Notes: generated by a model not told the origin, from the letters alone. 64,000 bases of DNA from an uncultured Planctomycetales bacterium (GCA_964648665.1 CAZYOA010000006.1:24943-88942), one strand, 5' to 3'; counted from the stretch's first letter, positions 19,418 to 30,838 are shown. Numbers and translations are program-made.

Positions 19418-20491
19418 GTGTTACGAAAATTCTTTAAACGAGTTAAAAGATTTATTAATTATATTCTTGGTCTTTTTTCAAATGATATGGGAATCGATCT
19501 TGGAACAGCTACGACCTTAATTTATGTTAAGGGACAAGGTGTTGTTTTATGCGAACCATCTGTTGTTGCTTTGCATAAAGAGAGCGGACAAGTTTTGGCT
19601 GTTGGTGAAGAGGCAAAACGAATGCTTGGTCGAACGCCTGGATCTATTGTTGCTGTTAGGCCGATGCGCGATGGTGTTATATCAGATTTCGAAATCACAG
19701 AAGCGATGCTTCGTTATTTTATTAAGAAAGTTCATTCTCGTAGAGTTTTAGTTCGTCCAGCAATGGTTGTTGCTATTCCTTCTGGGATTACTGAAGTTGA
19801 AAAAAGGGCAGTCAAGGATTCTGCTGAACGAGCTGGAGCGCGTTCAGTTGAATTGATCGAGGAACCAAAAGCTGCTGCAGTCGGTGCAGGGTTACCGGTT
19901 GAAGATCCTGCTGGTAATATGATTGTTGATATTGGAGGAGGAACAACGGAATTTGCTGTGCTTTCTCTAGGGGGCATTGTTTATTCTCAGTCGATTCGAA
20001 TTGCAGGTGACGAAATGGATACAGCTATCATTGATTATTTAGGAAAGACTTATAATTTAATGATTGGTGAGCGCACTGCAGAAGAAATTAAAATTCGTAT
20101 TGGATCTGCCTATCCACTTGATGAAGAATTAAGTATGGATGTTCGAGGACGAGATCTTATTTCTGGTTTGCCAAAAACGATTACAGTTACATCTGTTGAA
20201 ATTAGAGAAGCCCTTCAGCCGCCTGTTAGAGCTATTGTTGATGCTTCAAAAACTACACTTGAGCAAACCCCTCCAGAGCTTGCTGCAGATTTGATTGATC
20301 GAGGAATTGTTATGGCAGGCGGAGGCGCAATGCTAAGAGGTCTTGATAAATTGATTGCTGAAGAAACTGGTTTGCCTGTTCATATCGCTGACGATCCTCT
20401 CACAGCTGTTGTTTTGGGGACAGGGGCGACATTAGATATGCCGGCTCGTTTGCGACGAGGTCTTGTTGTTCCTGCTAAACTTGATTTTTAA
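19418..20491 (+). CDS. mreB: Rod shape-determining protein MreB
   Basis: Actin-fold motifs GIDLGTATT and [11 protein letters not shown] start with aggag SD 8 nt upstream; N-terminal amphipathic extension. Confidence 0.95.
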
Positions 20492-20509
20492 TATCTAAAA
20501 GAAATTGAT

Positions 20510-21301
20510 GTGTTTCGAATTTCATCCAAAAAAGCCACTTATTTATTAATTGTCATTCTGGCATTCTTTGTTTTATTTTTTGCTCAGGGTGCATCCTCCG
20601 GTTTGCGCATGGGCGTTGTTTCTGCTTTTTCACTTCCAATTAAAATTGTAACTTTTCCATTTAAAGAAATTAAGAAAATTTGGTTTTATCGAAAAACGTT
20701 TGATGAGAGTAAGTCTTTGAAAGAGGAGTTTCAGACGCTAAGAAGGCGTTTATTTGAGCAAGAAGAAGTTTTAAAGGAAAATAGTCGATTTAAAAAATTG
20801 CTAGATTTTCAATCAACATCTGTTTTTTCATCTGTGGCAGCTAGTGTTGTCGGTAGAGATCCTTCAAATTGGAATGCTGTTATTATTATTGATCGGGGAA
20901 GCGAAGATGGGCTTGAGCAAGGAATGCCGGTGATTAGTCCTTTGGGCGTTGTTGGTCGAATTTTAGAGGTCGGATCTCACATAAGCAAAGTTATGCTTTT
21001 AACAGATCCAAGTTTTAGTGTTGCAGCGGTAGTTCAGCGTAATCGAGAGCAGGGTTTAATTTCTGGAACATTGCAAGGTGTGTGCCGTATGCAGTATTTA
21101 TCTCCAAAAACACGGTTTAATATTGGAGATCCTGTAATCACTTCTAATCTGAGTTCGTTTTTTCCAGAAGGACTTTTGGTTGGAAAGATTGTCGCTATTG
21201 AAGATAGCACCAGTAGCCCTACTATTGAGTGTCTTGTTGAGCCCGTTGTTATTCTTTCGCAAATGGAAGAAGTGATTGTTCTTAAAATTCCGCAGGAATA
21301 A
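20510..21301 (+). CDS. mreC: Rod shape-determining protein MreC
   Basis: N-terminal TM, coiled-coil segment, two beta-barrel-like repeats (GMPVISPLGVVGRILEV; GDPVITSNLSSFFPEGLLVGKIV); GTG start; follows mreB. Confidence 0.85.
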   Translation: MFRISSKKATYLLIVILAFFVLFFAQGASSGLRMGVVSAFSLPIKIVTFPFKEIKKIWFYRKTFDESKSLKEEFQTLRRRLFEQEEVLKENSRFKKLLDFQSTSVFSSVAASVVGRDPSNWNAVIIIDRGSEDGLEQGMPVISPLGVVGRILEVGSHISKVMLLTDPSFSVAAVVQRNREQGLISGTLQGVCRMQYLSPKTRFNIGDPVITSNLSSFFPEGLLVGKIVAIEDSTSSPTIECLVEPVVILSQMEEVIVLKIPQE

Positions 21302-21320
21302 AATCAGGTAATTAAAGCTT

Positions 21321-21806
21321 ATGAGAAAAATCTTTGGTATTATTTTCTTTTCTATTTTTTTATTTTTAATCGAGATTGCTTTATTCCAGATATTTGGTTT
21401 ATGGTTTAAACCAAATCTTTTGGTTATTTTTATTATTTTCGTTAATTTAAGATTTGGTCTTCGTTATGGAGTTTTTGTTTCTTTGTTTTGCGGTATTTTA
21501 GCTGATAGTTTTAGTGCAGGAATTTTTGGTGTCCACATTATTTCTTTTATTATTTGTTCGTATATTTTGGCGATTGTTAAAAAATATTTTTTGCAATTTG
21601 ATGCGCTGTCGTTTAAGCTCGTGATTGCTTTTGTGTTTAGTTCCTTGTTTGTTTTATTAATGTATTTTTTTAATGCTATGTTTTTAAAAATTAACTTTAG
21701 CGGTGTTTTCACTTTTATATTTCTGCCAGAAGTGGCGGCAACTGTGGCAGTGTCTCCGCTTTGTTTTGATTGGTTTAAAAAATGCGACTCAAAATTATTA
21801 AATTAG
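21321..21806 (+). CDS. mreD: Rod shape-determining protein MreD
   Basis: 161-aa polytopic membrane protein directly after mreC; call rests on position and hydrophobicity. Confidence 0.7.
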   Translation: MRKIFGIIFFSIFLFLIEIALFQIFGLWFKPNLLVIFIIFVNLRFGLRYGVFVSLFCGILADSFSAGIFGVHIISFIICSYILAIVKKYFLQFDALSFKLVIAFVFSSLFVLLMYFFNAMFLKINFSGVFTFIFLPEVAATVAVSPLCFDWFKKCDSKLLN

Positions 21807-23497
21807 TTATTATAGGTCTTTTTCTTAGCTTAATTTTCGGTCTTGTTCATTTGCAGATAATTAAGGGTCAAGAATTTTATGATCTTAGTCGGTATAATCG
21901 TATCCGAATTGTGCCGATTGATGGAAATCGAGGTCGCATTCTTGATCGAAATGGTGTTGTTTTAGCTGATACGCGCATTTCTTTCGATGTAGTTGTTATT
22001 CCTCAGGAAATTAAAAATAAAGAGGATCTCTTTTCTTTCTTAGGCACGACTCTTGAAATTGAAAATGATAAATTGTTAAAACTTTTTCGAGAGAGATCGG
22101 CTGCACCTTTTGTTCCCGTTGTTATTCAGGAAGATCTTTCTAGAGAAAAAGCAATTATTTTAGAGGAAAACAAATTTAGATTTCCTGGGCTACTTGTTAA
22201 TGTTGGCGCTAAAAGAGAATATCCTTTCGGTAAAGTTGGTGCTCATATCCTGGGATATGTTTCTAGAATTAATCAAGATAAGTTGAAAAAGTTTAAAGAT
22301 TATGGTTATTCTGTTCAAGATGTTACAGGATATTCTGGTGTAGAGGAATATTATGATAACTTTTTGCGGGGACGAGATGGAGGGGTTCAGGTTGAAGTGA
22401 ATAATCGCGGCAAACAAATGAGACTTTTAGGAATGAAAGAGTCTTTGAAGGGGCAAGATTTAATTCTTGGTATTGATGCTCGAATTCAAAAGATTGCTTC
22501 TGATGTTTTATCTGAGAAAAAGGGAGCAATTGTAGTCCTTGATCTTAACACAGGAGAAGTTTTAGCTATGGTGAGTTCTCCGTCTTTTGATCCTAATGCT
22601 TTTGTTGATTCAGCGAAATCAAAAGAAAGAGCTGAATTAATTTTTGATTCTGACGCACCTATGATGAATAGGGCTATTAGTGGACAGTATCCTCCTGGAT
22701 CAATTTTTAAAATTCCGATGGCACTTGCGGTATTAGATCAAAAAAAAGTTTCGCTAGATAAAACATTTTTTTGTAATGGATCGTATCGGCTAGGTCGAAG
22801 ATCGTTTCGTTGTTCTCATTCTCATGGTATGCAAAGTTTTACAGAGGCGATTGCACATTCATGTAATGTTTATTTTTATAATGTTGGTTTGCTCTTGGGT
22901 CCAGAAGCCATGAGAGAATATGCGTTTCTTTTTGGACTTGGAATCCCTACGAATATTGATCTTCCTTACGAGAGGGTAGGGCTTGTTCCTGATGCAACGC
23001 AGTTTTTTAAGCGCGCAGGTCGTTCGTGGAGCAGAGGAGATACGCTTAATTTCTCAATTGGTCAAGGAGATGTTTTAACAACGCCGATTCAGATTGCTAA
23101 TATGATTTCAACGGTTGCTCGCGGCGGAAGAGAAATTACTCCGCATATTATGATTTCTATTGGAGATGTCGATAAAAAAGAATTAATTTTAGCTAGAAAT
23201 ATTGATATTTCAGAGAAATATTTTGAAGATGTTAAGGTGGGGATGAAAGCTGCTGTTGAGGAATATTCTGGAACGGCACATTTGTTGGCGATACCTGGTA
23301 TTTCGGTCTCGGGTAAAACAGGAACAGCTCAAACTTCTGGTGGGAAAAAGCACCATGCTTGGTTTTCTGGATTTTGTCCTGAAACAAAGCGAAGAATATC
23401 TTTTTGTGTTTTCTTGGAACACGGAGGATCAAGCTATTATGCTTGCCGTGCAGCGCGCAAGCTTTTAATAGCTATGCGGAAGCAGAAAATTATATAA
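21782..23497 (+). CDS. mrdA: Penicillin-binding protein 2 (elongasome transpeptidase)
   Basis: PBP dimerisation domain plus transpeptidase motifs SxxK (PGSIFK) and KTGTA; between mreD and rodA. Confidence 0.9.
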   Translation: MRLKIIKLVIIGLFLSLIFGLVHLQIIKGQEFYDLSRYNRIRIVPIDGNRGRILDRNGVVLADTRISFDVVVIPQEIKNKEDLFSFLGTTLEIENDKLLKLFRERSAAPFVPVVIQEDLSREKAIILEENKFRFPGLLVNVGAKREYPFGKVGAHILGYVSRINQDKLKKFKDYGYSVQDVTGYSGVEEYYDNFLRGRDGGVQVEVNNRGKQMRLLGMKESLKGQDLILGIDARIQKIASDVLSEKKGAIVVLDLNTGEVLAMVSSPSFDPNAFVDSAKSKERAELIFDSDAPMMNRAISGQYPPGSIFKIPMALAVLDQKKVSLDKTFFCNGSYRLGRRSFRCSHSHGMQSFTEAIAHSCNVYFYNVGLLLGPEAMREYAFLFGLGIPTNIDLPYERVGLVPDATQFFKRAGRSWSRGDTLNFSIGQGDVLTTPIQIANMISTVARGGREITPHIMISIGDVDKKELILARNIDISEKYFEDVKVGMKAAVEEYSGTAHLLAIPGISVSGKTGTAQTSGGKKHHAWFSGFCPETKRRISFCVFLEHGGSSYYACRAARKLLIAMRKQKII

Positions 23498-23503
23498 TAC
23501 ATT

Positions 23504-24610
23504 ATGACTCGAAATTTAAATAAAATTATCTGGATTACAACAATTGTGATTATCGTTGTTGGTCTTGCTGCTTTATATAGCGCTTCTTATCAAAATTCGA
23601 GAATTTCTCAGAAAGTTTTTTTTGATCAGCTAATCTTAGCTTCAGTTGGGATTTTGGCTATTTTTGGATTAAGCTATATTGACTATCGAAAGTTTTATGA
23701 TTTAGCATATGTTTTCTATATTGTTAATGTTATTTTCTTATTGGCTATTTTTATTTTTGGACGCTATGCCTTGGGAGCAAAAAGGTGGATTGAATTTTTC
23801 GGTTTAAATTTTCAGCCATCTGAAATGATGAAATTTTCAATAATTTTGGTTTTAGCTCGATATTTCTCTGATACAAAACCAAAGATTGAATTTAGTCGCT
23901 ATGGGTTAAGGTCTGAATTCTTTTCTGATTTTTTGATTCCTTTGGTTATTGTTTCGTTTCCGGCGTTATTAGTTTTTAAACAGCCTGATCTTGGGACAGC
24001 ATTATTATTATTTGGAATTTTTGTTGTTGTTTTGTATGCTAGCGGAATTAGTTATAAATATTTCTTTAGTTTCTTAGGCTGCGGCCTTGTGCTTGTTCCT
24101 GTGCTTTGGAGTTTTATGAAGCCGTATCAGAAAGATCGTTTGCTCGTATTTTTAAATCCAAACATTGATCCTTTGGGTGCAGGATATACGATTATTCAGT
24201 CAAAAATTGCTGTTGGATCAGGGCAGATGTTTGGCAAGGGATGGCTTTCGGGAACGCAAAATCAACTTAATTTCTTACCTGAACGGCATACAGATTTCAT
24301 TTTCTCTGTTATTGGAGAAGAATGGGGGCTAGCAGGAGCATTCTTTTTGATTGCTTGCTTTTTTATTTTAATTATGACTACGTTAAACCTTGTTGACCGA
24401 GCAAATGAGAAATTTGGATATCTTGCAGGTATTGGCATTGTTTCAATACTGACTCTTCAAACAGTTATCAATATCGGAATGGTTTTAGGCCTTTGTCCAA
24501 TCGTTGGATTGACGCTTCCGTTTGTTAGCTATGGCCGATCGTCATTTGTTGTTTTTGTTCTTATGATTGGATTTCTCTTGAGCTTGGGTAAGCGTAGAAC
24601 AGTTTTTTAA
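23504..24610 (+). CDS. rodA: SEDS-family peptidoglycan polymerase RodA
   Basis: FtsW/RodA/SpoVE family (QPSEMMKF, PERHTDFIFSVIGEEWG); ten hydrophobic segments; follows mrdA. Confidence 0.9.
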   Translation: MTRNLNKIIWITTIVIIVVGLAALYSASYQNSRISQKVFFDQLILASVGILAIFGLSYIDYRKFYDLAYVFYIVNVIFLLAIFIFGRYALGAKRWIEFFGLNFQPSEMMKFSIILVLARYFSDTKPKIEFSRYGLRSEFFSDFLIPLVIVSFPALLVFKQPDLGTALLLFGIFVVVLYASGISYKYFFSFLGCGLVLVPVLWSFMKPYQKDRLLVFLNPNIDPLGAGYTIIQSKIAVGSGQMFGKGWLSGTQNQLNFLPERHTDFIFSVIGEEWGLAGAFFLIACFFILIMTTLNLVDRANEKFGYLAGIGIVSILTLQTVINIGMVLGLCPIVGLTLPFVSYGRSSFVVFVLMIGFLLSLGKRRTVF

Positions 24611-24626
24611 ATAGTAATGATAAAAA

Positions 24627-24655
24627 TTGTAATATTTTAGGTTTTAGAGTAGTAT
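24627..24655 (+). promoter_or_regulatory. Weak sigma-70-type promoter candidate for pilus ATPase operon (TTGTAA-17-TAGTAT)
   Basis: TTGTAA 24627-24632, 17-nt spacer, TAGTAT 24650-24655, in an AT-rich 78-nt gap where chance matches are likely. Confidence 0.3.
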
Positions 24656-24688
24656 ATTTATTAAATACTTTTACTTATATTAATAACT

Positions 24689-25141
24689 ATGTCAGATTAT
24701 AAAAGAATTAATAAAAAATTTCTAGGGGAACTTCTCATCGAAAGAGGCGTGATCAATGAGAACCAACTTAATGAGGCCATCGAGTATCAAAAAGAAAAAG
24801 GCGGCCTGGTTGGGGAGGTTCTTGTAATTCTTAAATATGCCTCAGAAGAAGATATTGCTCAGGCTTTGACGTCTCAATACGGATTTCCGTATTTACCATT
24901 ATCAAATTATGAAATCGAAGAAGACGTTCTTTCATCGGTTCCTTTTGAGGTTTGCAAGAAATCTTGTCTTATTCCAATTGATAAAATTGGAGGAAGCTTG
25001 ACTTTAGCCATGGCAAACCCGTTGGTTTTAGAGGCGATTGAAGAAGTCGAGGAGTTGACGAAGTGTTCTGTTCAGACCTTTGTGAGTACATCAACGGATA
25101 TTCGAAATACGATTGATCGATATTATCGCGTAAACAAATGA
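24689..25141 (+). CDS. Stand-alone T2SSE_N / MshEN-like domain protein (150 aa)
   Basis: Residues 11-63, FLGELLIERGVINENQLNEAIEYQ-KEKGG-LVGEVLVILKYASEEDIAQALTSQ, followed by YGFPYLPL and the rest of a GspE/PilB N-terminal domain. There is no ATPase domain. The stop overlaps the pilB-1 start (ATGA). Confidence 0.75.
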   Translation: MSDYKRINKKFLGELLIERGVINENQLNEAIEYQKEKGGLVGEVLVILKYASEEDIAQALTSQYGFPYLPLSNYEIEEDVLSSVPFEVCKKSCLIPIDKIGGSLTLAMANPLVLEAIEEVEELTKCSVQTFVSTSTDIRNTIDRYYRVNK

Positions 25142-26859
25142 TTTCGCCAATTCAAAAATTAAAAACTATACTGATCGAACAAAAAGATATAAATTCGTCT
25201 GTCTTTGATGATGCAAAGGCAAAAGACGTTTTTTTTGTAGATTATATTATTGAAAATGCATTCCTTCCTGAGTCAGAGATTGTTAATTGTTTCATTGAGG
25301 CTTTAGGTGCACAGCCTGTTGATGTTTCTGAATTAAAGATTTTTGCTCAATTGCTTGAAATTATCCCAAAACCTATTGCTCTTAATTATCAAGTTATGCC
25401 GATTGTTTGTATTGGTCAAACGCTTGTTTTAGCAACAGCAAATCCGGCTGATATTGTGATGATTGATAATCTTAATGCTTTAACGGGACTTCAGATTCGA
25501 TTTGTAGAAGCAACGGCTCAAAACATTGAGAAAGCAATTGGATTTTATTATTCCGAGGACGCTAATATTGCTTTTGAGCAGATCATGAAAGACATATCTG
25601 ATTCTGAAGAGCTTGAGCTAGTTAGAGATTCTGATAAAGTTACAGAAAAGCAGCATGTTGAGAATTTGATTCAAGATGCGCCAACAATACGATTAACGGA
25701 TGCGATTATTAAGCAAGCCATTATTGCTAAAGCTAGTGATATTTTTATTGAGCCGTTAGAAAAATCTTTACGTATTCGCTATCGCATTGATGGCATTATC
25801 CGGGAAGTGGATCGGATGTCAAAAACATTACATTTTCCGGTTGTTTCTCGTATAAAAATTATGTCAAATTTAGATATCTCTGAGCATCGTTTACCGCAAG
25901 ATGGACGCTTTAAGGTTGTCACTGATCGTAAAAGACAAGTTGATTTTCGAGTTAGTATTTTGCCAGCTGCATTAGGAGAAAAAGTTGTATTACGTGTTTT
26001 GGATAAAGATGCGGCGATGCTTGATATTGCAAAGCTTGGATTTAAGCCGAAAGCCTTAGAGATGCTTAAACAATGTTCTTTGAAGCCACATGGAATGATT
26101 TTAACGTGTGGGCCAACAGGAAGTGGAAAAACAACAACGTTATATTCAATCTTAAAATTTATTGATTCTTCTGAAAAAAATATTATTACTGTTGAAGATC
26201 CTGTGGAATATCAAATGAAGGGAATCAATCAAGTTAATATTAAGCCGCAAGTTAACTTGACATTTTCATCGACACTGAGATCTATCTTAAGACAAGATCC
26301 TGATGTTATTATGATTGGAGAAATTCGTGATTTTGAAACTTTAGATGTAGCAATTAAAGCTGCATTAACGGGTCATTTAGTTTTAAGTTCTTTGCATACA
26401 ACAACAGCAGCGGGATCTGTTGTTCGAATGATGAATATGGGTGTTGAGCCTTTTCTAATTTGTTCGTCTGTTTTAGGAGTGGTTGCTCAGCGTCTTGTTA
26501 GAAAGCTTTGCGATAAATGCAAGGAACCTTATGACGTTCCAAATTATGTGGCTAAGAAAATTGGTTTAACAAAAATGAAATTTGATCAAGATCCAACATT
26601 CTTTAAAGCAAAGGGCTGCAAGCATTGTCGTGATTTAGGATATCGAGGTCGGATCGGCATTACAGAGATTATGGTTTTAACATCTGCTGTTAAGAAATGT
26701 ATTTTAGAGCGAGCAGGAGAGCTTAAGATTAAAGAAGCGGCTCGAAAAGAGAGAATGGTTACGATGAGAGAAGATGCTTTAGATAAAGTTGCGCTAGGTC
26801 TGACATCCATTGAGGAAGTTTTAAGAGTAACTGCTTTAGATGAAGAGTTGAAAAAATAA
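25138..26859 (+). CDS. pilB: Type IV pilus assembly ATPase, PilB/GspE family, paralog 1
   Basis: Walker A GPTGSGKTT, Asp box ITVEDPVEY, Walker B VIMIGEIRD, His box TGHLVLSSLHT, tetracysteine CDKC...CKHC; degenerate T2SSE_N N-domain. Confidence 0.9.
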   Translation: MISPIQKLKTILIEQKDINSSVFDDAKAKDVFFVDYIIENAFLPESEIVNCFIEALGAQPVDVSELKIFAQLLEIIPKPIALNYQVMPIVCIGQTLVLATANPADIVMIDNLNALTGLQIRFVEATAQNIEKAIGFYYSEDANIAFEQIMKDISDSEELELVRDSDKVTEKQHVENLIQDAPTIRLTDAIIKQAIIAKASDIFIEPLEKSLRIRYRIDGIIREVDRMSKTLHFPVVSRIKIMSNLDISEHRLPQDGRFKVVTDRKRQVDFRVSILPAALGEKVVLRVLDKDAAMLDIAKLGFKPKALEMLKQCSLKPHGMILTCGPTGSGKTTTLYSILKFIDSSEKNIITVEDPVEYQMKGINQVNIKPQVNLTFSSTLRSILRQDPDVIMIGEIRDFETLDVAIKAALTGHLVLSSLHTTTAAGSVVRMMNMGVEPFLICSSVLGVVAQRLVRKLCDKCKEPYDVPNYVAKKIGLTKMKFDQDPTFFKAKGCKHCRDLGYRGRIGITEIMVLTSAVKKCILERAGELKIKEAARKERMVTMREDALDKVALGLTSIEEVLRVTALDEELKK

Positions 26860-28565
26860 TGGTAAATACAATTAAAGAAAAAGTTTTAGATGCATTGTCA
26901 AATCTTCATGGAATTAGCAAAAAGGATTTAGACGATGCTGTGGCTATGCATCAGCAGAGAGGTATTGGTCTTGATAAAATTTTAATTGAAAAAGGATTGA
27001 TTTCCGAACAAGATTTATTGAGTCTCTTGGTTAAAGAATTTAGCATCCCAACAATTAATCTTTCAAAATATAAAATTGATCCCTCTTTGAAAGAATTAAT
27101 TCCTGCTCGCATAGCAAGACAGCATCATTTAATTCCAATTTCAAAACTTGGAAAAACAATTACTGTTGCCTTGTCTGATCCATTTAATATTTTTGCAGTT
27201 GATGATTTAAAAACATTAACGAATAAAAATATTGATGTTGTTATGAGCGAAGAGTCTAAGATTGCACAAGCTCTTGATAATTATTATGGTGATGATAGTG
27301 TGGAAAGCGTTGCTGATGTTAGTCGTGAGATTGATATTGGTGATTTTGAGGTTATTGGCGATACGCAGACCGATAATCCTCAAGAAGCGAACCTGGAAGA
27401 AAGTGCACGCGCTCCAATCGTGCGTATGGTCGATTTGATTATTCGGGAAGCTTTAAAAGAGAGAGCTTCAGATATTCATATTGAGCCTAGTGAAACGACA
27501 GCTAGGGTTCGTTATCGGATTGATGGTGTTTTAAGAGAAGTTTTAAGCATTCCGCGAATTAATCAAAATGCTGTTATTGTACGCATTAAGATTATGGCTG
27601 GTATTAATATTACAGAAAATCAAATTCCTCAAGATGGACGTTTTAAAATGCGGCTTTCATCAAAGCAAGTTGATTTTCGCGTTTCACTTCTTCCAACAAC
27701 GTTTGGGCAAAAGATTGTTATGCGTATTCTTGATAAGAGCAATTTGGCTGGGGGTTTAGATGGATTAAAATTCTTACCAAAACCTCTTGAGAAATTAAAA
27801 GAAGCAGTTTCTAAGCCTTTTGGGATGATTTTAATAACAGGACCGACAGGAAGTGGAAAATCAACAACCCTGTATTCAATTATTAATCAGCTAAATACAG
27901 TGGATAAAAACATTATTACAGTTGAAGATCCTGTTGAATATTTGATTGATGGACTCACTCAGATTCAGGCAAGAACAGAAATTGGTCTTACGTTTGCCTT
28001 AGGATTAAGAGCAATTTTGCGTCAAAGTCCAGATGTTGTCATGATTGGAGAAATTCGAGACTCGGAGACCGCGGATATTGCTATTAAGGCTGCTTTGACA
28101 GGACAGCTTGTTTTATCTACTTTGCATACGAATGATGCCTCGGGAGCGTTGACTCGCCTGGTAGATATGGGAGTTGAATCTTTTTTAGTTTCTTCTAGCG
28201 TTGTTGCAATTTGCGCACAAAGATTATGTCGAACAATTTGTCCAAAATGCCGTGAAGAGATTAAGATTCCTGATAATGTTTTAAAAGAAAATAATATTGT
28301 AGTTAACCTTGGAACAAAATTTTATCATGGAAAAGGGTGTGAGTTTTGTCGGGAAACAGGTTATTATGGACGTGTTGCCGCAGTTGAGATTTTGGAAGTT
28401 GATGAAAATATTCGCGAGCTATTAGTTAGGGGATCTTCTGCGTCAGAAATTAAGGATTATGCGATTAACCATGGGATGATAACGCTTTGGGATGATATGG
28501 TTGAGAAGTTTTTATCTGGAATAACAACGATTGAGGAAGTTCTTAGAGTTGCAAGCTCAGAATAA
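26859..28565 (+). CDS. pilB: Type IV pilus assembly ATPase, PilB/GspE family, paralog 2
   Basis: Walker A GPTGSGKST, ITVEDPVEY, VVMIGEIRD, His-box variant TGQLVLSTLHT, tetracysteine CPKC...CEFC. TAATG overlap with paralog 1. Confidence 0.9.
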   Translation: MVNTIKEKVLDALSNLHGISKKDLDDAVAMHQQRGIGLDKILIEKGLISEQDLLSLLVKEFSIPTINLSKYKIDPSLKELIPARIARQHHLIPISKLGKTITVALSDPFNIFAVDDLKTLTNKNIDVVMSEESKIAQALDNYYGDDSVESVADVSREIDIGDFEVIGDTQTDNPQEANLEESARAPIVRMVDLIIREALKERASDIHIEPSETTARVRYRIDGVLREVLSIPRINQNAVIVRIKIMAGINITENQIPQDGRFKMRLSSKQVDFRVSLLPTTFGQKIVMRILDKSNLAGGLDGLKFLPKPLEKLKEAVSKPFGMILITGPTGSGKSTTLYSIINQLNTVDKNIITVEDPVEYLIDGLTQIQARTEIGLTFALGLRAILRQSPDVVMIGEIRDSETADIAIKAALTGQLVLSTLHTNDASGALTRLVDMGVESFLVSSSVVAICAQRLCRTICPKCREEIKIPDNVLKENNIVVNLGTKFYHGKGCEFCRETGYYGRVAAVEILEVDENIRELLVRGSSASEIKDYAINHGMITLWDDMVEKFLSGITTIEEVLRVASSE

Positions 28566-28592
28566 AGAATTTTTTACAAGAGGAGTTTAAAC

Positions 28593-29801
28593 ATGCCAAC
28601 ATATAAATATATTGCAAAAGATGAGAATGCAGCAACGATTAGTGGAAAAGTAGTTGCAGAGGATCAAGATTCTGTTATTCAAGAATTGCGCAAACGTAAC
28701 CTTACTGTTGTTAATGTTGAAGAAACCAAGAGCTTTGATTTGAGAAATATTTCTTTTGGAGGAAATAGAGTTAAGCCTGATGAGTTGGTTATATTTTCGC
28801 GTCAGCTTTCAACAATGATTGAGGCGGGTATCCCAATTTTGCAGAGCTTAGAAGCGCTTGAAGAGCAAACAACAGATCGATATTTTAAAGAAGTTGTAGC
28901 GACTGTTCGAGAAGATGTTTCTGTTGGAAACAGTCTTTCGGCAGCATTTGGAAAGCATCCTAAAGTTTTTGATACTCTTTTTGTGAGTATGGTTAAGGCT
29001 GGAGAAACGGGAGGTGCTTTAAATGAACTTTTGGATCGAGTTGCTGGATATATGGAAAAAACATTAAAATTAAAACGCAAAGTTAAAGCAGCGATGGTCT
29101 ATCCACTTGTTGTTATTTCTATGGCACTTATTATAACATTGATTTTGCTTATTAAAGTTGTTCCAACGTTTAAAGAAATATATGCTTCACTCGGTCATGA
29201 ATTACCTGGATTGACACAAGTGTTGATTCATATTAGTGATAATTTACGTTCGAATTTTTTAATAGGAATTATTTTGATGGTTGTTTCTTTTGTTGTTTTT
29301 GTTAATTATAAGAAAACTCCAAGAGGAAGTCTTCAATTTGACAGTCTTAGTCTTAAGGTGCCGGTTTTTGGGCCGCTGATTAAGAAAGTAGCGATTAGTC
29401 GATTTAGCCGAACCCTTGCAACGTTAATTCAAAGTGGTGTTCCAATCTTGACGTCTTTAGAAATTGTTGGAAAAAGTTCTGGAAATCGCGTTATTGAGTT
29501 GATAGCTGATGATGCATGTGAGCATATTCGAGACGGAGAAAGCATTTCTGAGCCACTTGCCAATAGTAAAGTTTTTCCTCAAATGGTTATTCGCATGATT
29601 TCTGTTGGAGAAAAGACAGGAAAGATGGAGACTATGCTAACAAAAATCGCAGAATTTTATGAAGATCAGGTTGATGCGGCTGTTTCTGGTCTTACGAGCA
29701 TGATTGAACCTCTTATTATTGGATTTTTAGGAATTGTTGTTGGTTTTATTGTTATTGCTTTGTTTATGCCAATTATAAATTTAACAACCATGGTTGGGTG
29801 A
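28593..29801 (+). CDS. pilC: Type IV pilus platform protein PilC (GspF family)
   Basis: Two T2SSF repeats (FSRQLSTMIEAGIPILQSL; FSRTLATLIQSGVPILTSL); three TM segments; 402 aa. Confidence 0.92.
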   Translation: MPTYKYIAKDENAATISGKVVAEDQDSVIQELRKRNLTVVNVEETKSFDLRNISFGGNRVKPDELVIFSRQLSTMIEAGIPILQSLEALEEQTTDRYFKEVVATVREDVSVGNSLSAAFGKHPKVFDTLFVSMVKAGETGGALNELLDRVAGYMEKTLKLKRKVKAAMVYPLVVISMALIITLILLIKVVPTFKEIYASLGHELPGLTQVLIHISDNLRSNFLIGIILMVVSFVVFVNYKKTPRGSLQFDSLSLKVPVFGPLIKKVAISRFSRTLATLIQSGVPILTSLEIVGKSSGNRVIELIADDACEHIRDGESISEPLANSKVFPQMVIRMISVGEKTGKMETMLTKIAEFYEDQVDAAVSGLTSMIEPLIIGFLGIVVGFIVIALFMPIINLTTMVG

Positions 29802-29803
29802 CA

Positions 29804-30838
29804 ATGAAATTCTTTTTAATTTCTATATTTAGCTTGCTGGTTTTATTAATAAATCCTTCTATGGCACATTCGCAAAATGAGAGCGACTCTTTGAATCTTG
29901 TTGATTATTGGGCTCAAAATGTTACTGAGTTAAAGATGAGCATGAATAATCTCTCTGCGGAAAATGATATATTTTTTCAAGAAAATCAAGACTTGATTAG
30001 GCAGATTAATATTTTATCTGGTCAAATAAAAGAAATGAATGCGCAAATAAAAAAGTTTGGGTCTTCTGGAGATTTGGCTTCTAAAGAAATTAAGAAAATA
30101 CGCAATGAAATTCTGAGGCTAGAGGAGAAGTTGAATCATTCTTTAAAGAAAAAGAGTAATCTTGAAGATAAGACAGAAAAGTTTAAAAATTATATTGATC
30201 AAAAACAAGTAGAAAATCAACAAATTGAATCAAGAATTGAACGCATTAGGAAGAATATAGGGCTTCTTGACGAAAAGAATGATTCTAAAGTTCATCGAGA
30301 TCAGCAGGATTTCGATAAGCATGAAGGTCAAGAAGTGCGTCTTGTTGAGATGCTTGAGATGAGCGAGACTGATTTATCTGACTGGAAAAGCAGGATTGAG
30401 AATCTTAATGGTGAGTTTTTGTCTTTTCGTCAGCGTTTTCAAGTACTAAATAAAGAAAATCAGGAAATTTATCAGGAAATGTTAAGTATTTATGAGAATT
30501 TAAAAGAATTTTCGCCTCAGCAGCATTCGTTAACAGAAGAACGTGATGTTCTTTTGGGGCAATATCAGACACAGATTGATGCTTTCTCAAAAGAGGTTTC
30601 TAATGTTGCGAAAGGCAAGAAGCATCTTCAAAATGAGTTTATGCAAGTTCAGCAGGATATTGAGAAATTTAAGCATCAGGTAGATACTGAGAAAATTCGT
30701 ATGCTTCAATCTGAGTCTCTGGCTCTTGAGAATGAAAATAGGGATTTGAAGAAGCAATTTAAGAAACTTCAGAAAGATCTTGTCCGAGTTCAAAAACAAA
30801 GAAAAAATATGGAAAATCGGATTAAAAGTCGAAAGTAG
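29804..30838 (+). CDS. Exported coiled-coil protein, function unknown (pilus-locus embedded)
   Basis: Signal peptide MKFFLISIFSLLVLLINPSMAHSQ, then ~320 aa of E/K/Q/N-rich heptad-like sequence. ATG 29804 is preferred over the GTG at 29798. Confidence 0.6.
   Translation: MKFFLISIFSLLVLLINPSMAHSQNESDSLNLVDYWAQNVTELKMSMNNLSAENDIFFQENQDLIRQINILSGQIKEMNAQIKKFGSSGDLASKEIKKIRNEILRLEEKLNHSLKKKSNLEDKTEKFKNYIDQKQVENQQIESRIERIRKNIGLLDEKNDSKVHRDQQDFDKHEGQEVRLVEMLEMSETDLSDWKSRIENLNGEFLSFRQRFQVLNKENQEIYQEMLSIYENLKEFSPQQHSLTEERDVLLGQYQTQIDAFSKEVSNVAKGKKHLQNEFMQVQQDIEKFKHQVDTEKIRMLQSESLALENENRDLKKQFKKLQKDLVRVQKQRKNMENRIKSRK

Follow-up and report, generated by a model that had tools for sequence, protein, structure and literature searches.

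A 64-kb stretch of DNA (64,000 nucleotides, CAZYOA010000006.1:24943-88942 of assembly GCA_964648665.1, hereafter the window), filed under an uncultured Planctomycetales bacterium, encodes a protein of 150 amino acids (aa) in an open reading frame (ORF) at 24689-25141, at the head of a type IV pilus operon. The ORF product belongs to the MshEN domain family and, lacking an ATPase domain, is not itself a PilB. To judge from its sequence, it is probably a receptor for cyclic di-GMP (c-di-GMP), a second messenger. Directly downstream are genes for two PilB-type ATPases, PilB1 and PilB2, whose own MshEN-fold N-terminal domains (N-domains) have lost residues that contact the ligand. The fuller statement, that the protein serves in trans as the c-di-GMP receptor of two PilB motors that have no binding site of their own, is favored more cautiously. 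The line of evidence weighed most heavily for a functional site is a pattern of selection: the predicted ligand contacts are kept in the stand-alone proteins and lost in the neighboring motors.

Domain content and tandem motif of the stand-alone protein

The domain assignment comes from profile searches with hidden Markov models (HMMs). The NCBIfam model NF053729 ('c-di-GMP_motif', cyclic di-GMP-binding domain, MshE-related) matches residues 12-63 of the ORF with 61.7 bits (E=4e-17) against a curated cutoff of 38 bits. The match spans positions 2-53 of the 53 positions in the model, which correspond to a 24 + 5 + 24 tandem motif. The Pfam model MshEN (PF05157), which describes the C-terminal subdomain only, matches residues 64-147 with 70.5 bits (gathering cutoff 23.1). 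A Pfam scan of the 150-aa ORF found no match to the T2SSE ATPase core (PF00437, Walker A/B), and the match to TIGR02538, the PilB equivalog model, is limited to positions 2-138 of 564. All of the 50 members of the stand-alone family that were tested pass NF053729, and a search of 5.8 billion proteins returned 3161 homologues of the ORF product. Given these numbers and the HMM E-values, the motif match is far beyond chance. An earlier note on this DNA, made from the sequence alone, had described a complete stand-alone MshEN domain without an ATPase, and this description is borne out. In databases, homologues are labeled 'type IV pilus assembly protein PilB' by JGI and 'hypothetical protein' by NCBI.

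The tandem motif aligns with that of Vibrio cholerae MshE (VcMshE) without gaps at an offset of +2; in other words, the 24 + 5 + 24 register claimed in the earlier note holds. Residues L10, G11, G18, L25, Q32, G40, L58, and Q61 of VcMshE are identical in the ORF (L12, G13, G20, L27, Q34, G42, L60, and Q63). Three residues are changed conservatively (L29 to I31, L39 to V41, and L54 to I56), and three are changed non-conservatively (R9 to F11, R38 to L40, and G47 to K49). The deviations listed in the earlier note (Arg to Phe, Arg to Leu, Leu to Val, and the turn Gly to Lys) all stand, and L29 to I31 and L54 to I56 have to be added to its list. In the structure of the VcMshE MshEN domain (VcMshEN) with c-di-GMP (5HTL), the Gly at position 3 and the Gln at position 24 of both half-motifs are the polar contacts to the ligand, and binding is abolished by G11L and by G40I (PMC5013675). 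All four contacts are present in the ORF as G13, Q34, G42, and Q63.

Position 1 of the half-motifs is less uniform. It is Arg in the original consensus (PMC5013675). The GSPII-B domain of Thermus PilF has K167 and L196 at this position and an affinity of 6 nM for c-di-GMP; with K167L the value is 2 nM. The consensus was extended to (R/K/L)LG as a result of such work, and a hydrophobic first residue is seen as a predictor of high affinity (PMC11731258). In the ORF, L40 fits the extended consensus and F11 fits neither version. Across the family, position 1 of half-motif I varies among H, Q, F, and R and follows an invariant K10. No mutant data for R9A, R38A, G18, or G47 were found in the supplement of Wang et al. 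2016. By analogy with PilF GSPII-B and K167L, Leu at position 1 is compatible with c-di-GMP binding, and Phe may be as well.

The predicted fold points in the same direction. An AlphaFold2 model of the ORF product, built with 50 family members in the alignment, has a predicted local distance difference test score (pLDDT) of 88.8 and a predicted template modeling score (pTM) of 0.75. It places N-terminal helices at residues 12-18, 24-37, 41-47, and 53-64, followed by an alpha/beta subdomain. The top match of the model among solved structures is 5HTL, with template modeling (TM) scores of 0.80/0.86 and a root-mean-square deviation of 2.1 A over 139 residues, so the predicted four-helix bundle and alpha/beta fold superpose on VcMshEN. 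The next matches are the GSPII domains of Thermus PilF and the N-domain of Xanthomonas PilB from its complex with PilZ (7LKM, TM 0.80); 2BH1 and 4PHT are partial matches. The ligand pocket is not occluded in the model because helix alpha1 begins only at residue 12.

Ligand contacts in stand-alone proteins and in PilB N-domains

Selection on the motif differs sharply between the stand-alone proteins and the motors. Across 28 stand-alone proteins that are 35-81% identical, no columns but G13, L16, Q34, G42, and Q63 are invariant, and four of these five are polar c-di-GMP contact residues of 5HTL. Two kinds of stand-alone protein contribute to the pattern. Copy 1 is the kind represented by the ORF. 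Copy 2 is a second stand-alone MshEN paralogue of ~150-166 aa, 35-41% identical to copy 1, that 21 relatives encode between pilB2 and pilC. In copy 1 (n=92), G13, G42, and Q63 are present in every sequence, Q34 in 89, and L40 in 87. In copy 2 (n=21), all four Gly/Gln contacts are present in every sequence. The N-domains of PilB1 (n=60), by comparison, never have Gly at position 3 of half-motif I and have it in only three cases at position 3 of half-motif II. Likewise, both sites are without Gly in all N-domains of PilB2 (n=49), 41 of which have Glu at position 24 of half-motif II. In other words, the Gly/Gln contacts are essentially invariant in ~113 stand-alone proteins, whereas the Gly residues are almost always lost in ~109 adjacent PilB N-domains. 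The motif glycines are not needed for the fold because the N-domains of PilB1 and PilB2 do without them. The same split between stand-alone proteins and PilBs is seen in the more distant loci L018, L020, and L023. A Firmicute PilB that has no stand-alone partner (L017) carries a perfect RLG...Q/RLG...Q motif in cis.

The two motors of the window follow this pattern. The N-domain of PilB1 gives no match to NF053729; it is 25% identical to the stand-alone protein, and its spacer is shortened by 4 residues. The N-domain of PilB2 scores 26.7 bits, under the cutoff of 38. Thus, the poorer motif fit of both ATPase N-domains that had been reported earlier is confirmed. PilB1 and PilB2 both keep the Walker A (GPTGSGK[T/S]), Asp-box, Walker B, His-box, and tetracysteine motifs. 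Because these motifs are intact, both are probably active motors.

Copy-2 proteins pass NF053729 at 45-55 bits. Copy 2 is absent from the window, where the gap between pilB2 and pilC is only 27 nucleotides (nt; 28566-28592). In one sublineage the N-termini of copy-2 proteins are rich in Cys: MGSCCH (L010:8475-8930), MAKCCL (L011:8913-9413), MTKSCL (L012:9943-10410), and MTKCCL (L013:9949-10404).

Further variants of the family rearrange the same domain. Protein P0132 (765 aa) is a natural fusion in which an N-terminal MshEN domain, 41% identical to the stand-alone protein, is joined through a linker to a PilB1-like protein (45% identity) with a degenerate N-domain of its own. This fusion argues for a functional coupling of the mshEN and pilB products. 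Its (MshEN)2-T2SSE architecture was already listed for Clostridia (PMC5013675). Family variants of 213-221 aa duplicate the four-helix sensor bundle only. For example, P0014, P0054, and P0124 (213-215 aa) have an extra complete tandem-motif bundle ahead of a full MshEN domain (MshEN_N-MshEN), which gives two predicted ligand sites. In P0167 (723 aa), an N-terminal MshEN domain 47% identical to the ORF product is followed by a PilZ-like region with RxxxR and DxSxxG and by hydrophobic segments; by its sequence, this protein may be a double c-di-GMP receptor.

Three Cys residues of the C-terminal subdomain are also conserved in copy-1 proteins: C89 in 117 of 117, C93 in 114 of 117, and C126 in 116 of 117 (window positions 24953-24955, 24965-24967, and 25064-25066). 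They are absent from the N-domains of PilB1 and PilB2, and only C126 (in 'TGC') is common to copy 2. Cys89, Cys93, and Cys126 could be a metal or redox site.

The pilus operon and its relatives

The genes of this region all lie on the plus strand (G+C content of the window, 36%). Their order is mreB-mreC-mreD-pbp2-rodA, a 78-nt spacer, mshEN-pilB1-pilB2-pilC, a gene for a coiled-coil protein, a pilin gene, and pilM-N-O-(P)-Q (Table 1). The stop codon of mshEN lies on the start codon of pilB1, an overlap that had been read correctly before, and the start of pilB2 overlaps the stop of pilB1 by 1 nt at 26859. A scan of 24400-25300, an interval that takes in the rodA-mshEN spacer, turned up no terminator-like site and gave weak promoter-like matches only.

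Table 1. Features of the mshEN locus; positions are those of the window unless a related locus is named.
Feature	Position	Strand	Evidence or remark
Stand-alone MshEN protein gene, 150 aa, without ATPase domain	24689..25141	+	ORF, Pfam, NCBIfam, AlphaFold2 model
Half-motif I, residues 11-34, FLGELLIERGVINENQLNEAIEYQ; G13 and Q34 are predicted ligand contacts	24719..24790	+	gapless register with VcMshE R9-Q32
Spacer of 5 residues (KEKGG)	24791..24805	+	translated ORF; family spacer 5-6 residues
Half-motif II, residues 40-63, LVGEVLVILKYASEEDIAQALTSQ; G42 and Q63 are predicted ligand contacts, L40 is position 1	24806..24877	+	family conservation
MshEN_C / T2SSE_N1-like alpha/beta subdomain, residues 64-147, including Cys89, Cys93, Cys126	24878..25129	+	Pfam PF05157, secondary structure
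ATGA: mshEN stop (TGA 25139-25141) on pilB1 start (ATG 25138-25140)	25138..25141	+	sequence
PilB1, 573 aa, PilB-type ATPase, own MshEN-fold N-domain without c-di-GMP motif	25138..26859	+	T2SSE 466.7 bits, MshEN 47 bits
PilB2, 568 aa, second PilB-type ATPase, degenerate N-domain motif (D for G, E for Q)	26859..28565	+	T2SSE 435.4 bits, MshEN 77.7 bits
PilC platform protein	28593..29801	+	T2SSF 222.9 bits, synteny
rodA-mshEN intergenic spacer, 78 nt	24611..24688		filled by a HAMP-GAF-GGDEF gene in 30/71 related loci; absent here
Upstream GGDEF-family gene, examples	L006, L007, L009, L016, L032, L037 and others		immediately 5' of mshEN
Copy-2 MshEN gene, examples	L007:6240-6740, L010:8475-8930, L012:9943-10410, L016:10101-10568		between pilB2 and pilC

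The closest named relatives are metagenome-assembled genomes of Candidatus Aceula, phylum Omnitrophota, with 81% identity for the MshEN protein, and the bacterium of the window is itself taken to be an uncultured member of this phylum. Fifteen species-representative Omnitrophota genomes share the order rodA-mshEN(147-153 aa)-pilB1-pilB2-pilC, down to ~50% PilB identity, and a metagenome scan added 80 further loci with the same arrangement. The total is ~95 non-redundant loci whose stand-alone proteins are 59-81% identical, in a survey biased to copy-1 relatives at an identity of at least 59%. Across these loci the separate mshEN gene is under strong purifying selection. Among the 58 non-redundant loci with downstream sequence, pilB lies immediately 3' of mshEN in 55. 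In 24 of the 58, the end of mshEN and the start of pilB1 overlap, and a gap of 0-20 nt separates the two genes in a further 18 (42 of 58 together). The length of the protein is also stable, with 147-153 aa in 114 of the best 120 homologues; of the top 150 cluster representatives, 52 have at most 200 aa. For the members of these clusters, taxonomy returned only Omnitrophota names or none.

Some database labels disagree with this picture. Records L004, L009, and L016 are titled 'uncultured Planctomycetales' and have a typical Omnitrophota rodA-mshEN-pilB1-pilB2 locus with 64-75% identity; the labels are probably wrong. In L015 ('uncultured Clostridia'), a match of 44% identity lies at the very end of a contig.

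Several other features of the neighborhood recur. The tandem pair of full-length PilBs (25138-28565) is kept across Omnitrophota loci. The adjacency of the elongasome genes (mreBCD-pbp2-rodA, 19418-24610) and the pilus operon that follows on the same strand is kept in most related loci. Between pilC and the pilin gene, a 346-aa protein (29798-30838) has a signal-peptide-like N-terminus, a long coiled coil, and a GTG start that overlaps the pilC stop. Weak homologues of this protein (24-41% identity) occupy the same position in L001, L005, L014, and L029. No PilT-type retraction ATPase was found in the 64-kb window.

A genomic link to c-di-GMP was seen in the relatives. Of 71 loci whose upstream sequence is long enough, 30 have, between rodA and mshEN, a gene for a transmembrane HAMP-GAF-GGDEF protein of ~475 aa (Pfam GGDEF 93-114 bits). 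At the more distant locus L018 (42% identity), the gene for a HAMP-GGDEF protein of 304 aa, whose GGDEF and RxxD motifs are canonical, overlaps mshEN and is followed by pilB-pilC-pilS-pilR. L018 has the only canonical GGDEF among the upstream genes. Other regulators also lie close to the module. At L020:5489-5962, a single-domain response regulator is encoded directly 5' of mshEN, and a PilS/PilR-type two-component pair directly follows pilC in L018:9374-12379 and L023:8181-9509. The neighbors in L018, L020, and L023 suggest further regulatory inputs to the module.

Proposed action, rival explanations, and known systems

How would the stand-alone protein act on the motors? We propose a soluble single-domain MshEN receptor that is co-produced with two PilB-type ATPases whose N-domains have lost ligand-contact residues. 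One c-di-GMP molecule would be held in the N-terminal four-helix bundle. The backbone amides of G13-E14 and G42-E43 would contact the Hoogsteen edges of the guanines, Q34 and Q63 would contact ribose and phosphate, and the triads L12/I56/L60 and V41/L27/I31, together with F11 and L40, would stack on the bases. In PilF GSPII-B, a helical turn unwinds and the subdomains change their orientation when c-di-GMP binds (PMC11731258); by analogy, the ligand would reorient the N- and C-subdomains of the stand-alone protein. The liganded protein would then engage PilB1 and/or PilB2, or use its N1-like C-subdomain to engage PilM/PilC, and this docking would gate pilus assembly; ligand, docking partner, and direction of regulation are all part of this proposal. 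Its functional counterpart would be the first domain of (MshEN)2-PilB ATPases, here made as a separate polypeptide.

A more far-reaching version, which we offer as speculation and consider doubtful, is a three-part relay in Omnitrophota. It would join a HAMP-GAF-(degenerate)GGDEF sensor in the membrane, one or two MshEN adaptors that diffuse, and two PilBs without a site. The liganded adaptor would pick which motor engages PilC/PilM, such that c-di-GMP would set the choice of motor. The lineage of the window would then have a reduced version without the GGDEF partner and the second adaptor.

Several observations weigh against a c-di-GMP receptor that serves the PilB motors. Phe at position 1 of half-motif I and Lys at position 10 of half-motif II (G47 in VcMshE) depart from VcMshE. 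The PDB domain that scores highest by sequence against the ORF is GSPII-A of Thermus PilF, a non-binder, and GSPII-A stays non-binding even with its consensus restored (PMC12002112). The N-domains of PilB1 in some relatives score 40-57 bits on NF053729 despite the missing Gly. The related stand-alone genes of L021 and L022 are not near pilB. The GGDEF signature is degenerate in 29 of the 30 upstream genes ([GAS]DHEF, GDNDF, DDDEF, and others), and RxxD is mostly missing. Because of this degeneracy, these 29 proteins are probably not cyclases by their sequence, and the idea that the upstream genes encode diguanylate cyclases was dropped. Finally, GGDEF, EAL, and HD-GYP genes and a c-di-GMP riboswitch were not found in the 64-kb window, which is too small to settle the matter.

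Of the rival explanations, the one that survives best, itself unlikely, is that the protein binds c-di-GMP and has a target other than the ATPases. It would dock on PilM (GspL-like) or PilC, competing with or recruiting the motors, or it would signal outside the pilus machine. In type II secretion, GspL/EpsL is indeed bound by the MshEN_C fold (the partial matches 2BH1 and 4PHT; PMC8389850), and the operon of mshEN also includes the genes for PilM, PilN, and PilO. The genes of L021 and L022 would also fit a target elsewhere, as would the link of a stand-alone MshEN protein of Pseudomonas aeruginosa, PA3740, to swarming. However, mshEN lies immediately 5' of pilB1, often overlapping it, in most loci, and natural fusions join the domain to PilB and not to PilM or PilC. 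Furthermore, the motif loss is specific to the PilBs, which fits a role directed at the motors.

Somewhat less probable is that the protein binds no nucleotide and is a structural accessory like PilF GSPII-A, helping to assemble or stack the ring of PilB1/PilB2 N-domains. Its resemblance to GSPII-A by sequence favors this view, as do the absence of Arg at position 1 in either half and the Lys in place of the turn Gly in half-motif II. The motif alone is insufficient for binding because GSPII-A with a restored consensus does not bind (PMC12002112). The failure of GSPII-A has been traced to a stable N-cap (L4-T5...D8) plus contacts between its subdomains (PMC12002112). However, the blocking features of GSPII-A (H33, R62, S39, and the L4-T5...D8 N-cap) are absent from the ORF, which has Q34 and Q63 instead of His and Arg, L40 and G42 versus S39 and A41, no Ser/Thr/Asp N-cap, and a modeled first helix that starts at residue 12. 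Moreover, the columns that remain invariant at 35-81% identity are the contact Gly/Gln residues and L16 only, and these Gly residues are dispensable for the fold. The linkage to GGDEF-family genes and the duplication of the sensor bundle alone in some variants also speak against a purely structural role.

That the protein senses another cyclic dinucleotide, for example 3'3'-cyclic GMP-AMP (3'3'-cGAMP), is improbable. According to a statement in PMC5013675, VcMshEN also binds cGAMP, and most of the linked GGDEF domains are degenerate. Against this stand the two half-sites, whose likeness in Gly, Gln, and hydrophobic residues implies a symmetric ligand with two guanines, and the canonical GGDEF cyclase gene that overlaps mshEN in one relative (L018).

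The last rival, an artefact in which the ORF is a pseudogene or the N-terminus of PilB1 cut off by a frameshift or truncation, is ruled out for practical purposes: mshEN does overlap pilB1 in another frame and several 147-149-aa homologues are named 'type IV pilus assembly protein PilB' by JGI, but PilB1 is full-length, with an MshEN domain of its own and an alignment to TIGR02538 that begins at model position 12, and the separate gene has thousands of homologues of nearly constant length and is conserved by selection at ~95 loci. The earlier note had named such a frameshift among the findings that would undo its interpretation, and this danger is removed. Its inference that the sensor was simply split from the motor fails, since PilB1 and PilB2 each keep a full MshEN-fold N-domain. 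Because PilB1 aligns from position 12 and has an MshEN domain, the ORF is an additional domain and not the detached N-terminus of PilB1. In other words, it adds a paralogous MshEN domain, the counterpart of the first domain in (MshEN)2-T2SSE proteins.

A trans-acting receptor of this kind would matter for several reasons. The mechanism by which c-di-GMP on MshEN alters PilB activity is still poorly understood. With sensor and motor on separate polypeptides, reconstitution and titration in vitro could separate ligand binding from motor function. The proposal also gives a testable function to a family of thousands of proteins now annotated 'hypothetical protein' or 'PilB', and it means that pili in the uncultured phylum Omnitrophota probably receive a second-messenger signal. 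A site kept in a stand-alone protein and lost in its partners is a pattern that could predict trans-acting sensors elsewhere.

The closest structural precedent is the MshEN domain of VcMshE (5HTL; Wang et al. 2016, PMC5013675). The two share the two-subdomain fold, the 24 + 5 + 24 motif, the contact Gly/Gln residues, and the hydrophobic triads as L/I/V. Unlike VcMshE, the ORF product, which is 28% identical to it, has no ATPase, has Phe and Leu for Arg at position 1, and has Lys for the Gly of the alpha3-alpha4 turn. Stand-alone MshEN proteins have been catalogued before, namely P. aeruginosa PA3740 ('MshEN - xT2SSE_N1') and Cyanothece cce_1044 ((MshEN_N)2) (Wang et al. 2016, PMC5013675). Like the ORF product, they have MshEN without a catalytic output domain. 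PA3740 is described as c-di-GMP-binding, with an LxxxLxxQ motif and a role in swarming; it differs from the ORF product in its highly diverged C-subdomain. No report was found of PA3740 or cce_1044 heading a pilB operon or being paired with motif-less PilBs, although the gene neighborhood of PA3740 was not inspected.

Thermus PilF ((MshEN)3-T2SSE) and the clostridial (MshEN)2-T2SSE proteins also have an extra MshEN on the N-terminal side of a PilB with an MshEN of its own. In those ATPases the extra domain is part of the motor, whereas here it is a separate polypeptide, set apart by a stop codon and a change of frame that are kept at ~95 loci. The FimX-PilZ-PilB system of Xanthomonas and Pseudomonas (PMC8389850) resembles the present one in a different way. 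It has a motif-less MshEN-fold N-domain of PilB, c-di-GMP sensing by a separate docking protein (which for the ORF product is a prediction), and a degenerate GGDEF protein of its own. However, FimX senses there through its EAL domain and a PilZ protein serves as adaptor, whereas the candidate sensor here is an MshEN domain; no PilZ or EAL domain was found in the ORF or the scanned neighboring genes, and no PilZ/EAL gene in the window. Thus, only the logic is shared. Acinetobacter baylyi, with PilB and TfpB (review PMC11656802), likewise has two PilB-type motors for one pilus machine. The motor genes here differ in being adjacent, with a 1-nt overlap, and accompanied by one or two stand-alone MshEN proteins.

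The earlier note knew of no characterized example of its arrangement. Stand-alone MshEN proteins as such do have precedents in PA3740 and cce_1044, so this part does not stand. The rest does: a conserved stand-alone MshEN that heads a pilB operon and goes with PilBs lacking the site is not described in the 2024 review of PilB cofactors (PMC11656802) or in full-text literature searches. What is known, then, is that MshEN proteins can stand alone and that c-di-GMP can be sensed in trans for a motif-less PilB; what appears to be new is a conserved MshEN protein at the head of a pilB operon whose PilBs are without the site.

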